Numbered from the stretch's first letter, positions 32,311 to 39,340 are shown. The stretch is 64,000 nucleotides of DNA from an uncultured Actinomycetes bacterium (GCA_963767005.1 CAVYCN010000018.1:64001-128000); one strand, 5' to 3'. Program-made: numbers and translations. Notes: generated by a model not told the origin, from the letters alone.

Positions 32311-33714
32311 CTAGCGAATGACCGGACGGCGACCGGCGAGCCCCGCCCGGAATCGCTCGACGGCCGGCAGGTGCAGGTCGAGCAGGTCGGCGATGTGCGC
32401 CTTGGCCTCGAGCGGGCTCGGGTCGTCGTAGTAGCTCGCCTCGGTCTCGAAGATGCGTCCGAGGCGCAGCTCACCGCGCAGCTCGTGCATGGCGGCGTTG
32501 TCGGACAGGTCGCGCGGCGCGACCCCGAGCCGGTCGGCCACGTAGCGTTTGGCCTGCGTGATCCTCATGCCCTTCGCCATCTGCATCCGCGCCACCAGAT
32601 CTCCGGCGGCGCGCAGTCCGTTCATGCCGGAGGCGCACGAGTGGGCGACGTCCATACCGAACGAGTCGCCCGTGCCCACCTACAAGCCGTCCAGGCGGAG
32701 CACGTCGACGCAGGCGCGCGACACCCGCGAGACGGCGTCGACCGGCGCGAAGGCGGTCATCGGCACGCCGCCCACGCCCATGCCGACGTTCATGTGCACG
32801 GGTATCTCGGCGGCGGCCATGCAGGGCTTCACGAAGGTGAGGGCGCGAGCCACGTTCCAGGGCGTCGACCTGCTCGTGTTGGTGTTCACCGCCGGTCCGA
32901 ACACCGTCGCGCCGGCCTGCTGCACCACCGCGAGCTGACCCGCTGGCTTGAGCCCCGCCAGGCGCGTGCCGCGATACTCGAGCCGGCCGTGGGTGCCGAG
33001 CACGATCTCGGCCGCCATGCCGACCATGATGCCCAGGTCGGGGTGCCGCTCCCGCAAGATCTCGACGGTGCGCAGGGTGGCCAGCAGGTCGGCGTCGCCG
33101 GCGGCGCCGGCGGTGTCGAAGTTCACACCGTCGGCGCCGGCGTCCCACATGGCCTCGGCCACGTAGACCATGTCGGCCACGGCAAGCTCGACCGCCTCTT
33201 CCTGGGCGGCGCGCGCCTCGTCGATGCGCACCTCGGGCAGGAGCTGCGCCCAGTTGCCGCAGGGTCCGTCGGGTTCCGAGTACCGGCCCAGGTCGGGCTG
33301 GGCGCCGTAGTGCACCGGCACCGTCAGCCGCTCCTGGGCCTCCTTCATGTACTGCTGCTCGAAGGGGACAACGGGCTTGACCGCCTTGTAGGAGTAGTCG
33401 ATGTGGAACAGCTCGACGCTGTCGTGGGCGAGCACCTGCTCGTAGGCGTACAGGGCGTCGACCCTGCTGCCGAGCTGCGGCGTGCCGGTGCCATCCTTTG
33501 AGAGCACGACCTCGTCGCCCACATCGACCGCCGTGAAGCGCGCCTGCGACGCGAAGATGTCGAGCAGATGGTCGAGCTCACTGTCGTCGAGCGACGCCAG
33601 CTTGCCGCGGGTGGCGGCGGCCTGCGTGCCCGCGTCGAGCTCGACGCGGATGGCGCTCCGGGTCGCCTCGACGAGCGACCCGTCGCCCATCCGCATCGGG
33701 ACCTGCCGTTCCAT
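32311..33714 (-). CDS. mtbB: Dimethylamine:corrinoid methyltransferase family, pyrrolysine (TAG at 32680-32682, codon 345); paralog 1, 467 aa
   Basis: RMGDG, DYSYKAVK and [14 protein letters not shown], then RLDGL*VGTGD...[17 protein letters not shown]; two ORFs abut in frame across a single TAG. Confidence 0.9.
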
Positions 33715-33802
33715 CAACGTCACCTCCGCGGCGCCGTCGCCCCCCTGGCGTCGGTCCCGGGGATGCTATCGCAGTCGCAGGCAAAGCGGCAACGCGCCTT
33801 CA

Positions 33803-33859
33803 GGCAAGAAGCGAGGCGGGGGCGGCGCCTTCGGCGCCGCCCCCGCCTCGCTTCTTGCC
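33803..33859. terminator. 27-bp-stem hairpin downstream of mtbB paralog 2
   Basis: GGCAAGAAGCGAGGCGGGGGCGGCGCC-ttc-GGCGCCGCCCCCGCCTCGCTTCTTGCC. Confidence 0.75.
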
Positions 33860-33890
33860 GTCGCCGGTCTGACCGCCGCGCCGCGGCCTT

Positions 33891-35276
33891 TTACAACCCG
33901 ACGCGCTGCTTGAAGCGCTCGACGCTGTTGATCGTGATGTCGAGCGCCTTGGCGATGTTGAACTTGGCCTCGATCATGCCGGCGTCGCCGGGACGCACCG
34001 CGGAGGTGTGAGGCAGGCACCCCAGCCCCTTCTCGATGCGGATCTGCTCCATGGCGATCGGGTCGGACAGGTCGCGTACGCCGCAGCCGAGCTTGTCGGC
34101 GACGTAGGCCTTGGCTTCACTCAGGCGCATCCTTCGGGTCATCTGCATGCGTGCCACGAGATCTCCCGCGGTCCGCATTCCGCCCATGCCCGAAGCCTGC
34201 GAATGGGCAGACTCCATGCCCATGGCATCGCCCGTGCCCACCTAGTAGCCGTCGATCTTGAGGATCTCGACGAAGGCCTTGGAGGCACGCGACGTGGCAT
34301 CGGCCGGCGGATAGACGCAGGTCGGCACGCCGCCCACACCCATGCCCACGTTGACGTGCACCGGGATCTCGGCGATCTCGGCGGCCGGCTTGATGAAGGT
34401 CATCGCCCGGGCGATGTTCCAGGCGGTCGACTTGCCTGTGTTGATGTTGACGGCGGGGCCGTAGATCGAGGCGCCCGCGGCCTGCACCATGCGCACCTGG
34501 TCCTTGGGCCACATGCCGGCCAGACGCTCGCCGTCGAACTCGAGCTGGCCGTGCATGCCGAGCACGAACTCGCTCGCCATGCCGATCTCGATGCCGAGCC
34601 ACGGGTATCTGTCGCGTAGCATGCGGCAAGCGGTGAGGCCGGCGAGAAAGTCGGCGTCGCCGGCCGCGCCGGTCGTGTCCATGTCGATGCCGTCGGCGCC
34701 GGCTTCGATCATGTGGTCGGCGACGAAGTTGATGTCGTTGACCAGCATGTCGCAGGCCTCGAGCTGCGCGGCGCGGGCCTCGTCGACCTTCATGAGCGGC
34801 AGCAGCTCGGACCAGTTGTCGATCGGCCCGTCGGGCTTCGAGTAGCGGCCGAGGTCGGGCATCGCCCCGTACTGCACCGGGTTCGTGCAGAGCATCTGGG
34901 CGATCTTCATCGACTGGCCCTCGTGGGCCACGTTGGTCTTGACCGCCTTGTACGAGTAGTCGATCTGCCAGAGCTCGATCATGTCGATGCCGACGACCTG
35001 CTCGTAGGTCTGCAGGTCCTGCACCCGGTTACCGATGTGCTTGGTGCCGGTGCCGTCGTTGCTCATGACGACCTCGTCGCCGATGTCGACGGCGGTGAAG
35101 CGGGCCGACGAGGCATAGATGTCGAGCAGGTGGTCGAGCTCGTCCTGATTGAGCGGGTCGACCTTGGCCCGTTTGGCGGCCTGTTGCGTGCCGTCCTCGA
35201 GGTCGGCCTTGATCTCGGAGCGCGTCATATCGACGAGCGCGCCGTCTCCCATGCGCGTTGCGATCTTGGGTTCCAA
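33891..35276 (-). CDS. mtbB: Dimethylamine:corrinoid methyltransferase family, pyrrolysine (TAG at 34242-34244, codon 345); paralog 2, 461 aa
   Basis: TTG start after GGAGGT (MEPKIATRMGDG); KIDGY*VGTGDAMGM...[20 protein letters not shown] terminal stop. Confidence 0.9.
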
Positions 35277-37763: not shown

Positions 37764-37888
37764 GGCGTCCTCGCTGGAGTCGGGCTTGCGTCCGACCCCA
37801 CGGTTCCCCGCCAGGAGCAGGACAAACGCAATCGTCGCGGCGAGGCGCGATCGTCGCGACGAGGCGCGCCGCGATAGGGCGATGAGGT

Positions 37889-37930
37889 CGGCGGTGGGCG
37901 GGCGCCCATACGGGCGCCCGCCCACCGCCG
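37889..37930. terminator. Hairpin downstream of mtbB paralog 3
   Basis: CGGCGGTGGGCGGGCGCCC-atac-GGGCGCCCGCCCACCGCCG. Confidence 0.75.
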
Positions 37931-37933
37931 CGA

Positions 37934-39340
37934 TCAGCGTCCGACGGGGTGCTTGCGGCCGGCCATCTCGCGGAAGCGCTCCACGCAGTTGACCGGCACG
38001 TCGAGCACGGCCGCGATGTTGAACTTGGCCTCGATCCCCATGGGGTCGCCGACGTCGGTGATCTCGCCCGACTCGAGGATGCCGCCGAGGCCGTGCTCCT
38101 TGCGCACGTCGAGCATGACCGTCGGGTCGGAGAGGTCGATCGTCGAGACGCCCAGCCGGTCGGCCACGTACCGCTTGGCCTCGACGAGCCGCATCCCTCG
38201 GGTGATCTGCATCCGGGCCACCAGATCTCCAGCAGTCCGGATCCCGCCCATCCCCGAGGCGACGCCGTGGCTCACAGCCTGGCCGTACACGTCGCCCGCG
38301 CCCACCTACAAGCCATCCAGGCGCAGGATGTCGACCGCGGCGCGCGAGGCCCGGCAGGTGGCGTCGCCGGCCGGGGTGACGTGCATCGGCACGCCGCCCA
38401 CCCCCATGCCGCCGTTCAGGTGCACCGGCACGGTCGCCTCGTCGCAGCACGGCTTGGCGATGGTCAGCGTGCGCGCCACGTTCCAGGCGATCGACCTGCC
38501 GGTGTTCACGTTGATCGCCGGGCCGAAGATGGTGACGCCGGCCTTGGCGGCCACCTTCATCTGCTCGCGCGGCCACAGGCCGGCGAGGCGCACGCCGTCG
38601 TACTCGAGCTCGCCGTGCATGCCGAGCACGAACTCGCCGGCCATGCCGATCTGGATGCCCACCGTCGGGTGCGCGGCGCGGATGCGCTCGACCGCCTTGA
38701 GCGTGGCGAGGAAGTCGGCGTCGCCGGCCGCGCCGGCCGTGTCGAGGTCGATGAACTCGGCGCCGGCTTCGATCAGCTCGTCGGCCACGAAGCAGATGTC
38801 GTCGACCGCGAGCTCGACCGCCTGTTCCTGGGCCGCGCGAGCTTCGTCGATGCGACCGAGCGGCAGAAGCTGCGACCAGTTCGGCACCGGACCGTCGGGC
38901 ACGGTGTAGAGGCCGAGGTCGGGCATGGCGCCGTAGCCGAGCGGCGCCGTGGTCACGAACTGCGCCTGGCGCATCATGACCTGCTCGAAGGCCGTGACCC
39001 CCTTCGCCGGCTTGTAGGAGTAGTCGTGGTGGTAGAGCTCGAGCGAGTCGGCGCAGAGGTACTGCTCGTAGTACTGCAGGTCGTTGATGCGCGTGCCGAG
39101 GTCCTGGCTGCCGCAGCCGTCGAAGGACAGCACGACCTCGTCGCCGATGTCGACGCCGGTGAACCGGCTGTTCGAGCAGAAGATGTCGGCGAGGTGGGCG
39201 AGCTCGTCGGCGCCCAGCTCGGGACTCTTGCTGCGCTTGGCGCCGGCCTGCGTGCCGGCCTCGAGGTCGGCGCGGATCTGCGACGGCGTCATCTCGACGA
39301 GCGCGCCGTCGCCCATGCGCGTGCGGATCGTGGGTTCCAT
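37934..39340 (-). CDS. mtbB: Dimethylamine:corrinoid methyltransferase family, pyrrolysine (TAG at 38306-38308, codon 345); paralog 3, 468 aa
   Basis: [25 protein letters not shown]...[20 protein letters not shown] terminal stop. Confidence 0.9.

Follow-up and report, generated by a model that had tools for sequence, protein, structure and literature searches.

The window analysed here, a 64,000-nucleotide stretch of DNA from an uncultured Actinomycetes bacterium (GCA_963767005.1, CAVYCN010000018.1:64001-128000), contains three genes of the MtbB family, each with an internal UAG that very likely encodes pyrrolysine (Pyl). A predicted hairpin with an AGRN loop follows each of these UAGs, and we hold with moderate confidence that the hairpin and the codon preceding the UAG act as a cis signal which favours Pyl-tRNA. 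The wider question is by what means a cell keeps its stop UAGs apart from those that it reads as pyrrolysine. The hidden constraint is visible because the lineage is 71% GC and has many paralogues. It offers an exact, mutable target of 16-36 nt with natural negative controls at hand, so the discrimination question is directly testable. In addition, large sets of Pyl methyltransferases, truncated by standard gene callers, are present in nearly the whole of an uncultured Thermoleophilia family, and these sets bear on the methylamine consumers of anoxic soils and sediments.

The mtbB genes and the pyrrolysine machinery

The three mtbB paralogues (dimethylamine:corrinoid methyltransferase family) lie on the minus strand, and each has one internal in-frame TAG, as the first-pass annotation had reported. 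Paralogue A (32311..33714) is 467 aa long when its internal TAG, codon 345 at 32680..32682, is read; this predicted Pyl codon has TTG, a rare Leu codon, before it and a G after it. Paralogue B (33891..35276) is 461 aa long, ends on TAA and has its predicted Pyl TAG at 34242..34244, with TAC before it. Paralogue C (37934..39340) is 468 aa long, ends on TGA and has its predicted Pyl TAG at codon 345 (38306..38308), again with TTG before it. The contexts read DGL-TAG-VGTGD (A), DGY-TAG-VGTGD (B) and DGL-TAG-VGAGD (C), as described earlier. The claim of a shared codon number, 345, for the TAG of each gene stands with starts at ATG 33714, TTG 35276 and ATG 39340, and it depends on the choice of the TTG in paralogue B; from the nearer ATG at 35282 the TAG of that gene becomes codon 347. 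Paralogue A ends on a second TAG (32311..32313), missed by the earlier annotation, which is used as a stop. The frame beyond it stays open for more than 120 codons, antisense into an aldolase gene, until the next TAG.

The assignment of all three genes to MtbB was borne out by TIGR02368 scores of 426.5 (A), 424.5 (B) and 402.8 (C) bits, above the cut-off of 369.1 bits, and each read-through gene covers PF09505 nearly end to end (E ~1e-162 to 1e-168; e.g. 9-459 of 463). Homology had been said to continue for about 120 aa past the TAG, and 122, 116 and 123 codons follow it in A, B and C, respectively. Pairwise identity among the window genes is 0.59-0.60 before the TAG and 0.53-0.57 after it, and purifying selection persists past the TAG (dN/dS 0.28 after vs 0.20 before). 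The position of the UAG in DGx-O-xGxGD is the same in bacterial and archaeal mtbB orthologues. Each of the genome's eight mtbB matches has a single TAG, as do 150/150 family-wide among the matches listed, which agrees with the earlier argument that the TAGs are not chance nonsense mutations. The mtbB family is expanded, as had been proposed, but the count of three was too low: the genome holds eight paralogues, 50-65% identical, which may differ in substrate. Paralogue C is predicted to fold as a TIM barrel, in which strand 343-346 carries residue 345. MttB and MtmB chains were absent among the best 50 fold matches to this predicted structure, and no solved MtbB structure was found by sequence search.

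The genome contains a complete pyl set (pylT, pylSn, pylSc, pylB, pylC and pylD) and 16 Pyl-type methyltransferases, namely 8 mtbB, 7 mttB and 1 mtmB. A pylT gene with a CUA anticodon was identified by ARAGORN (C3 c242986-243058); its fold has a z of -4.0, a longer anticodon stem and a single base separating the acceptor arm from the D arm, and Rfam gave no gathering match at this locus. The separate pylSn and pylSc (TIGR03912, 122 vs a cut-off of 51; TIGR02367, 298 vs 178) and pylB, pylC and pylD (TIGR03910, 428 vs 348; TIGR03909, 279 vs 248; TIGR03911, 195 vs 150) all score above their NCBIfam cut-offs. The genome also encodes 16 B12-binding corrinoid domains (PF02607), one RamA/AcsV-type activator (PF14574) and a downstream methyl acceptor (NF005719, 301 bits vs 259); none of the genes for these three functions was found inside the window mtbB cluster. 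The machinery and the conserved TAG position thus support, at the level of sequence, the earlier claim that this organism decodes UAG as Pyl. One candidate was rejected as a selenocysteine-type MttB, since the TGA in the sole MttB match with one (C10:37067) lies upstream of the real ATG.

The genome was placed in Thermoleophilia by DnaK, GroEL and GroES, which fall in 90% clusters with members so named. In this family, pylSc was found in 55/60 genomes, and the family-wide figures are 34/36 for mtbB and 37/40 for Pyl-type mttB.

A predicted hairpin 3' of the Pyl TAGs

Each of the 16 Pyl TAGs is followed by a predicted hairpin with an AGRN loop, at +72 in mttB, +78 in mtbB and +114 in mtmB, with stems of 11-15 pairs. 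In the window, on the minus strand, the hairpin of paralogue A lies at 32583..32618 (+62..+97 after the TAG; loop AGAU, 32602-32599) and is the MFE structure, with a z of -2.84. That of paralogue B (34145..34180; loop AGAU, 34164-34161; z -2.26) carries a compensatory wobble pair: G-C replaces the C-G or U-G of most paralogues. The hairpin of paralogue C (38209..38244; loop AGAU, 38228-38225) is both the MFE and the centroid structure, with folding no better than that of shuffles (z only -1.20). The strict motif was present after 15/16 Pyl TAGs, versus 7/932 stop TAGs, 15/1844 TGA and 0/130 TAA; the relaxed motif has a background of 59/930 stop TAGs (6%). The preceding codon differs as well, with TTG or TTA directly before 12/16 Pyl TAGs and only 2/932 stop TAGs. 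Near the TAG, GAT (codon +5) and GGT (+6/+11) are over-used as well.

Nucleotide selection on the hairpin exceeds what the protein needs. Fixed rare-codon columns in mtbB number 4/32 within codons -3..+35 versus 1/378 outside, and in mttB 5/36 within the TAG region versus 0/404 outside. For example, the codon that carries the loop A is GGA in 34/34 mtbB (3.1% in the genome) and GCA in 37/37 mttB (2.4%). The mtbB stem is 85.6% paired, versus at most 44% in slid controls, its axis ranks 1 of 2662 across the whole gene, and among 69 sequences there were 71 both-side changes versus 28.4 when shuffled (0/500 shuffles as high). In mttB, covariation is weak (further pair types, 498/500 shuffles as high) and the axis is not in the top 6 of 2643. 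Held-out mttB genes had the relaxed motif in 41/41 and the full stem in 35/41. Because the sequences are related to one another, all of these tallies make independence look greater than it is. The evidence is strong for mtbB; for mttB it is evidence of constraint more than of covariation. In mtmB, the loop A is at +114 in 11/12 loci despite a varying residue (the search window was extended to 120 nt after the hairpin was seen), all six pairs occur in just 4/11, and rare codons recur elsewhere in this small set. Within the loop, RNA-level selection is demonstrable only for the A; positions 2-3 overlap fixed bases of Gly/Asp codons. MtbB and MttB have no significant BLASTP similarity (best E 0.055); therefore, the hairpins are probably convergent. 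Hairpins nearer the TAG were considered as well and are not claimed (71.9% paired in mtbB, with equal covariation in slid controls; 70.4% in mttB).

The hairpin follows the TAG in its losses. Among TAG-less relatives it is kept in 0/9, and seven of these nine form three separate groups nested within the Pyl clade; three mttB lineages independently lost the hairpin along with the TAG. In 27 distant non-Pyl mttB, GCA occupies the loop codon in none. Archaeal orthologues with the same peptide (Methanomethylophilaceae-like sequences only) have the full stem in 1/62 mtbB, 0/25 mttB and 0/10 mtmB, with wobble pairs at chance. In Pyl bacteria outside Thermoleophilia, the full stem is present in 10/26 mtbB, 16/32 mttB and 1/4 mtmB, and paralogues both with and without it occur together in one genome. 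This patchy distribution indicates that the hairpin is not required for Pyl decoding.

Proposed role and alternative explanations

In the proposed mechanism, the genome's own pylT, pylSn, pylSc and pylBCD would decode the single internal UAG as pyrrolysine. The hairpin, which would have to fold in the cell, and the codon before the UAG would favour Pyl-tRNA over the release factor, and ordinary UAGs would stay stops. Methyl groups would pass from methylamine to the Pyl enzyme, then to the corrinoid protein and finally to tetrahydrofolate. With 72, 78 or 114 nt between it and the UAG, the loop is outside a ribosome footprint, so a bound factor or long-range contact would be needed. PylSn is the one small Pyl-specific RNA-binding protein, and as a first guess it is the candidate reader. 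A second SelB or EF-Tu-like reader was not found in the genome, which has one SelB only, and among 80 loci no additional gene next to pylSc was conserved between phyla; the pylSc neighbours in Thermoleophilia are amidase, HTH, OsmC, TldD and a radical SAM protein (one true outgroup match). A reader may instead have its gene at another locus. The hairpin is a candidate bacterial PYLIS, a designation drawn from comparative sequence. That an AGRN-tetraloop PYLIS arose three times (mtbB, mttB and mtmB), is read by PylSn or another factor and makes UAG-to-Pyl decoding site-selective is a tentative proposal, to which we give slightly less than an even chance.

Two recognition motifs were rejected. 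UNUAR, which we take to be the pseudouridine-synthase motif, fails at the UAG on the preference for TTR over CTG and on GCG/GGG/ACC contexts, and the GGA loop, presumably of CsrA type, is missing from the mttB loop. As a lead only, we note complementarity between the loop AGR and U33-C34-U35 of tRNA-Pyl. A hairpin that acts on decoding could make amber suppression site-selective in genetic code expansion and, should the PYLIS reading be true, would be a portable switch for suppressing chosen amber codons; a hairpin that acts on the fate of the mRNA would be a new sensor of Pyl supply.

Action on the mRNA belongs to an explanation that we consider unlikely but give real weight: simple competition of Pyl-tRNA with RF1 that only the adjacent codons tune, together with a hairpin that matches message level to Pyl supply. 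Once ribosomes had halted or stalled on the UAG, the hairpin would fold and mark the transcript for cleavage, or would act in transcription pausing or protection. The same link between hairpin and TAG is explained in this way, the long, variable spacing and the length of the stems fit, as does the lack of a dedicated factor in the SelB search and among the pylSc neighbours, and competition without an element is favoured in the available parts of PMC12626013 and PMC13663744. However, specific recognition is suggested by a loop A that hardly varies across three unrelated genes, although a nuclease could also provide such recognition. The version with Rho is weakened by the relaxed motif being kept in genomes where rho was not found (8/16 mtbB and 14/23 mttB, versus 8/10 and 4/9 in other rho-positive bacteria; G067 was set aside, and the genomes are MAGs that may be incomplete). 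Thus, Rho-polarity as the sole role of the hairpin is unsupported.

Unselective UAG readthrough on pyl induction, a conditional or genome-wide code change to which the hairpin would be incidental, is improbable. Conditional code expansion in a bacterium is cited by title (Prat 2012) in the reference list of PMC12626013, and an ABC substrate-binding gene of this genome contains a single in-frame TAG that lacks the strict motif. However, TAG ends 932/2906 non-Pyl gene calls (32%), including housekeeping genes such as groES and grpE, and these calls lack backup stops: the open frame after stop TAGs has a median of 65.5 codons, and a backup stop within 5 codons was present in only 4.3%. In addition, 7/35 mtbB genes end on TAG themselves. 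TAG is not reassigned genome-wide, as about one third of stops are still TAG. When 721 TAG-ended calls whose frame stays open past the TAG were searched against the organism's own genome and the retrieved loci, many-match homology across the TAG was found only in the 16 methyltransferases and the ABC gene. The latter was rejected as a further Pyl protein, since its TAG is not conserved in 2 orthologues (80-85%), which are without the stop, or in 45 paralogous matches. Selection on the hairpin would also be left unexplained.

It is very unlikely that the motif merely follows from the peptide or from shared ancestry, or is a DNA palindrome, rather than being a selected RNA structure. The peptide AAGDLVA does fix about half of the mtbB stem pairs, and in mttB the two arms make up a perfect inverted repeat. 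The Rfam model PYLIS_2 (RF02509; gathering threshold 36) scores the window genes at 73.3 (A, 32583-32682), 54.8 (B) and 50.6 (C) bits and is not discriminating, as archaeal genes without the stem score as high (68.7 and 69.8 bits). Against this, archaea and the TAG-less paralogues have the same peptide without the hairpin, four covarying mtbB pairs link third codon positions, and G-U pairs kept at two positions in 60-69 of 69 mtbB fit RNA and not a DNA palindrome. Lastly, pseudogenes or truncated 344-aa products can practically be dismissed: public databases store mtbB proteins as 344-aa calls and dN/dS is somewhat higher past the TAG, but the same TAG codon recurs in all eight paralogues and across phyla and sits within the predicted barrel, the pyl set is complete, selection 3' of the TAG is purifying, and G020 and G027, near-complete genomes of the family, are without both pylSc and mtbB.

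Comparison with known systems

The preferred reading, a cis signal that would favour Pyl-tRNA at the methyltransferase UAGs, can be set beside several known systems. The genome resembles Pyl-MtbB systems with split PylSn and PylSc in its family models, Pyl-position TAG, full pyl set, corrinoid proteins and activator. It differs in having 8 mtbB among 16 Pyl-type methyltransferases, compared with 6 MtbB and 2 MttB in the Olavius delta-1 symbiont (PMC1976440), in pyl genes interrupted by unrelated genes, and in that no acetyl-CoA synthase was found in a genome rated 100% complete. The first-pass annotation had regarded Pyl in an actinobacterium as notable. Pyl use is supported here, but the available parts of PMC9630628 describe two Actinobacteria with PylRS and the bacterial split PylSn and PylSc system, and those of PMC10805028 describe Actinobacteriota MAGs from Stordalen Mire, with the genus Bog-752 named, that express Pyl-type mttB and mtbB; therefore, that part is not new. 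The PylSc of a public record labelled Bog-752 is 85% identical to the one found here; the expressing MAGs of Stordalen Mire may belong to this family. Relative to the accessible text of PMC10805028, the pyl machinery, the family-wide survey, the stop usage and the cis element are features of the present analysis.

The PYLIS_2 consensus has a hairpin with an AGAc loop on the same axis as the window mtbB hairpin, whereas PYLIS_3 (RF02510, mttB), likewise a computational model, has no such hairpin. Predicted structures are given in PMC3639795, the text of which reports no common structure in mttB, and a manual search of bacterial genes in PMC1976440 also gave no common structure. The loop common to mtbB, mttB and mtmB, the bacteria-specific selection and the co-loss with the TAG were not found in the accessible text of PMC3639795. 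A literature search for a bacterial insertion element found none. In archaeal work, no element was essential, as far as the available portions of PMC12626013, PMC13663744 and bioRxiv 2024.09.30.615893 extend, and the accessible text of PMC12626013 (2025) states that the mechanism of targeted insertion is not known for any of these organisms.

Like the bacterial SECIS read by SelB, the hairpin lies within the ORF, 3' of a recoded stop, and is kept by synonymous constraint. Unlike a SECIS, its loop is 72-114 nt off and not directly downstream, the offset varies (+72, +75, +78 or +114) where a SECIS has a short fixed spacing, there is no second SelB, and this genome has another loop, GGUCU, after its formate-dehydrogenase-like UGA. 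As in archaeal Genetic Code 34, in the available part of its description (bioRxiv 10.1101/2024.09.30.615893), TAG is read as Pyl; unlike in that code, here TAG makes up 32% of stops, and methyltransferases were the only genes in which conserved in-frame TAGs were found.

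Pyrrolysine-type methyltransferases and their machinery

The window, C18:64001-128000 of the source genome, carries three mtbB genes on the minus strand: paralogue A (32311-33714, ATG start), paralogue B (33891-35276, TTG start) and paralogue C (37934-39340, ATG start), each with one internal TAG, at 32680, 34242 and 38306, respectively. GGAG/GAGG motifs precede these starts and the TAG is then codon 345 in all three genes, as the first-pass annotation had claimed; in paralogue B this depends on the TTG start, and an alternative ATG start would put the TAG at codon 347. The assignment to MtbB also held, as all three readthrough products match PF09505 over nearly their whole length and pass the TIGR02368 cut-off. 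Pairwise identity among the paralogues is 0.59-0.60 5' of the TAG and 0.53-0.57 3' of it. The proposed check of selection beyond the TAG bore out the claim: in 42 related mtbB pairs (75-97% identical), dN/dS was 0.20 in the part 5' of the TAG, 0.07 in its vicinity and 0.28 past codon +35 (codons counted from the TAG), and in 127 mttB pairs the same three zones gave 0.22, 0.19 and 0.35. An AlphaFold2 model of MtbB (60-row alignment, mean pLDDT 94.3) places residue 345 on strand 343-346. Its top fold matches are TIM-barrel methyltransferase domains, for example MetH (Z 17.7, rmsd 3.4, 256 aligned) and MtaA-type 4ay7 (Z 17.2, rmsd 3.6, 245 aligned). Because the model aligns with the barrel over residues 65-387, approximately, a stop at 344 would cut the barrel. 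A structure search by sequence found no solved MtbB structure.

Several other features lie beside these genes. An APC-family amino acid/amine permease (39771-41279, plus strand), divergent from paralogue C, may import the amine substrate, and a D-2-hydroxyacid dehydrogenase-like gene (36732-37925, plus strand) is convergent with paralogue C. Between paralogues B and C, a PIN-domain (VapC-like) ORF (35573-36004, minus strand) scores at the Pfam cut-off; upstream of it are tandem repeats of 24 bp (three copies) and 16 bp (8.6 copies) at 36065-36135 and 36607-36744, and a long inverted repeat is nearby (36433-36519). This looks like an inserted toxin-antitoxin-type module. A strong GC-rich inverted repeat between paralogues B and A (33799-33865), which surfaced as spurious miRNA-family matches, is a possible terminator or processing site; the terminator scan did not call it.

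The source genome (3.44 Mb, 19 contigs) is rated 100% complete and 4.87% contaminated. Its DnaK, GroEL and GroES fall in 90% clusters that include members named Thermoleophilia bacterium, and its closest PylSc relatives (80-91% identity) are from MAGs titled Actinomycetes, Actinomycetota or Thermoleophilia. Every pyrrolysine (Pyl) gene that the first-pass annotation proposed to look for was found on contig C3, which holds pylSc, pylSn, pylD, pylC, pylB, a corrinoid protein and a tRNA with a CUA anticodon, whose predicted fold shows the features of tRNA-Pyl listed in the accessible text of PMC8318568. The corrinoid side of the proposal was borne out as well, with 16 B12-binding domains and one RamA/AcsV-type activator genome-wide. 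There are 16 Pyl-type methyltransferases: eight mtbB copies, each with one TAG, 7 of the 41 MttB-family matches and one of four MtmB matches. The non-Pyl repertoire comprises about 27 full-length MttB-family genes and three MtmB homologues, so the demethylase set is very large. In three-component systems, a corrinoid protein accepts the methyl group of the amine; here the methyl group would then be handed on to tetrahydrofolate. A methyltetrahydrofolate:corrinoid methyltransferase is present. CdhC/AcsB had no match in this genome rated complete, and for this reason the methyl groups are probably oxidised or assimilated. Further loci singled out in the genome are C4:374505-376397, C4:389248-389345, C19:163119-164171 and C7:106935-107387.

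Pyl is almost certainly inserted at these TAGs. The claim of a Pyl-decoding actinobacterium is upheld by genes and machinery, but not as a novelty: the accessible parts of PMC9630628 report PylRS in two Actinobacteria, and those of PMC10805028 describe expression of Pyl-type mttB and mtbB in Actinobacteriota MAGs. A literature search combining pyrrolysine and Thermoleophilia found nothing relevant. The system extends through the family: pylSc was found in 55 of 60 family genomes, mtbB in 34 of 36 (vs one of 24 genomes from other families of the class), Pyl-type mttB in 37 of 40 and Pyl-type mtmB in 10 of 88 genomes. Of 80 pylSc loci, 56-61 have the same amidase and HTH genes next to pylSc, consistent with prolonged vertical inheritance. 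Three sequences stood apart. P0129, a single JGI sequence, is a full-length 463-aa MtbB homologue (35% identity) that contains no stop and has Trp in place of Pyl; it is either a read error or an MtbB that does without Pyl. In G067 (locus L146), a record titled Deltaproteobacteria, mtbB and mttB have 68-70% GC and nest among Thermoleophilia; probably its label is wrong or the record is mixed. A Thermoleophilia-type gene neighbourhood was likewise seen in L110, which is titled Zixibacteria.

TAG as stop and as probable Pyl codon

Our own dicodon gene caller, used rather than Prodigal, made 2922 calls in the genome, ending in TGA (1844), TAG (948, including the 16 Pyl sites) or TAA (130). TAG terminates groES and grpE at normal family length, and paralogue A uses it both internally and as terminator, as do 7 of 35 mtbB and 3 of 38 mttB genes. 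Past the TAG the frame has a median of 65.5 open codons, and a second stop within five codons occurs in only 4.3%. In 721 TAG-ended calls the frame stays open for 25 codons or more past the TAG, and homology spanning the TAG was sought for these against a database of this genome and the fetched loci. Spanning homologues were numerous only for an ABC substrate-binding gene and the 16 methyltransferases; single matches, mostly duplicated regions or gene pairs, were seen for a few other calls. Since TAG is common as a stop and conserved spanning homology is nearly confined to methyltransferases, the genome uses TAG dually and not as in Code 34. The ABC peptide-binding gene (C13:17276-19075) has a lone in-frame TAG lacking the strict hairpin described below. 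This TAG is not conserved, as orthologues at 80-85% carry no stop; it is a nonsense mutation, a read error or a tolerated Pyl site. Two different contigs each hold an ABC ATPase gene (C4:434668-435684 and C3:320201-321220); the two copies appear identical and are followed by the same gene. These and other duplicated stretches may explain part of the contamination figure.

A predicted hairpin downstream of the Pyl codon

GGA, GCA and TTG are rare in this genome (3.1% of Gly, 2.4% of Ala and 2.2% of Leu codons). Columns fixed for a rare codon were concentrated near the TAG, in mtbB (n=34) 4 of 32 within codons -3 to +35 vs 1 of 378 elsewhere, and in mttB (n=37) 5 of 36 vs 0 of 404. Codon +26 is GGA in 34/34 mtbB and codon +24 is GCA in 37/37 mttB; the third-base A of each starts a four-base loop, AGAY in mtbB (nucleotide +78) and AGGN in mttB (+72), over a stem of 6-7 pairs that reaches 15 pairs in mtbB. 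The hairpin is the minimum-energy structure in paralogues A, B and C (z -2.84, -2.26 and -1.20). In mtmB, where the hairpin was spotted after the fact in a small set that the first descriptor had missed, codon +38 has A as its third base in 11 of 12 loci, although the residue it encodes is Ala, Leu, Ile or Val, and the resulting AGGN loop lies at +114; at least five of six pairs form in 10 of 11 distinct stretches and all six in four. Other over-used rare codons lie outside the AGRN hairpin, at +5 in mtbB, +6, +11, +21 and +33 in mttB, and +32 and +46 in mtmB.

Covariation was strongest in mtbB (n=69). Stem cells were paired in 85.6% vs 78.3% when shuffled and at most 43.9% in slid controls, both-side changes numbered 71 vs 28.4 (0 of 500 shuffles as high), four covarying pairs connect third codon positions, and the hairpin axis ranks first of 2662 possible gene axes, all under the same phylogeny. 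In mttB (n=74) there were 30 both-side changes vs 10.1, further pair types were unremarkable, and the axis fell outside the top 6 of 2643, although corrected mutual information put pair +66/+81 at rank 21 of 76114. The mttB evidence is thus constraint more than covariation.

The strict motif, counted between +60 and +120, followed 15/16 Pyl TAGs, 7/932 stop TAGs, 15/1844 TGA and 0/130 TAA, and occurred in 37/5988 random in-gene stretches; a relaxed form followed 16/16 Pyl TAGs and 59/930 stop TAGs. The codon before the TAG was TTG or TTA at 12/16 Pyl sites vs 2/932 stops, and the base after it a purine at 16/16 vs 546/932. Proximal hairpins near the Pyl TAG tested weak. Held-out mttB came from 40 regions of family genomes not used before, picked by us from 150 listed matches and themselves kin; among these, 41 of 41 TAG-bearing genes had the relaxed and 35 the full motif, and some variants alter the amino acid yet retain the loop A. 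The hairpin was absent from nine mttB relatives that have a sense codon in place of the TAG, some of which lie beside a TAG-bearing paralogue that shares their ALAGAN peptide. Of the 27 distant non-Pyl mttB in the genome, not one has GCA at the loop codon. A FastTree of 65 rows, made up of every second mttB and selected others, placed seven of the nine relatives inside the Pyl clade, where they form three groups (support 0.978, 1.0 and 0.816), and two outside. There is, then, selection at the RNA level linked to the TAG. The nested genes (L334, L335, L342 and L336-L339), with Val, Leu or Trp codons, represent three separate losses and are candidates for newly derived Pyl-free specificities.

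The full stem was present in 34/38 mtbB and 36/38 mttB of Thermoleophilia. Among Firmicutes, Dehalococcoidales, Synergistaceae and deltaproteobacteria, with G067 counted apart, it was found in 10/26 mtbB, 16/32 mttB and 1/4 mtmB; the loop A was present in 20/26 mtbB and 18/32 mttB, and wobble pairs were above chance. In 80 archaeal loci from metagenomes, sharing 66-99% identity with a Methanomethylophilaceae MtbB, it was found in 1/62 mtbB, 0/25 mttB and 0/10 mtmB, with wobble pairs at chance level. The hairpin is widespread across bacteria, not universal. As the archaeal group presumably has no PylSn, this control cannot separate a bacteria-only from a PylSn-linked hairpin.

Function and comparison with proposed elements

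We lean slightly towards a hairpin that helps to favour Pyl insertion. At its distance from the UAG the loop cannot reach the decoding ribosome by itself, and such a role would need a reader or a long-range fold. PylSn would be the default suspect as reader; the genome has no second SelB, and no extra gene conserved beside pylSc across phyla was found. The main alternative, which is less likely, is that the hairpin folds only after ribosomes have failed at the UAG, and that it then controls mRNA decay or transcription. The version of this explanation acting through Rho is weakened, as the motif persists in 8 of 16 mtbB and 14 of 23 mttB from genomes in which no rho was found. The hairpin makes the long-standing question of how stop and Pyl UAGs are told apart testable by means of a few point mutants.

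According to bioRxiv 2024.09.30.615893, PMC12626013 and PMC13663744, neither a validated mechanism nor a required element is known. The accessible text of PMC3639795 has a predicted structure for mtbB and none for mttB, and that of PMC1976440 states that bacterial genes yielded no common structure. Our literature searches, with subscription journals mostly outside their scope, found no paper on a bacterial element. The SECIS-like loop after the formate-dehydrogenase-like UGA of this genome differs from the Pyl hairpin loop. The Rfam model PYLIS_2, of the proposed pyrrolysine insertion element, scores above threshold in all three window genes and its consensus already includes a hairpin with an AGAY-type loop; however, it gives equal scores to archaeal genes without the stem, and PYLIS_3, the mttB model, is without such a hairpin. 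Part of the mtbB hairpin is thus already drawn in Rfam, and the TAG-linked hairpin common to three unrelated genes is a new form of a proposed, unproven element.
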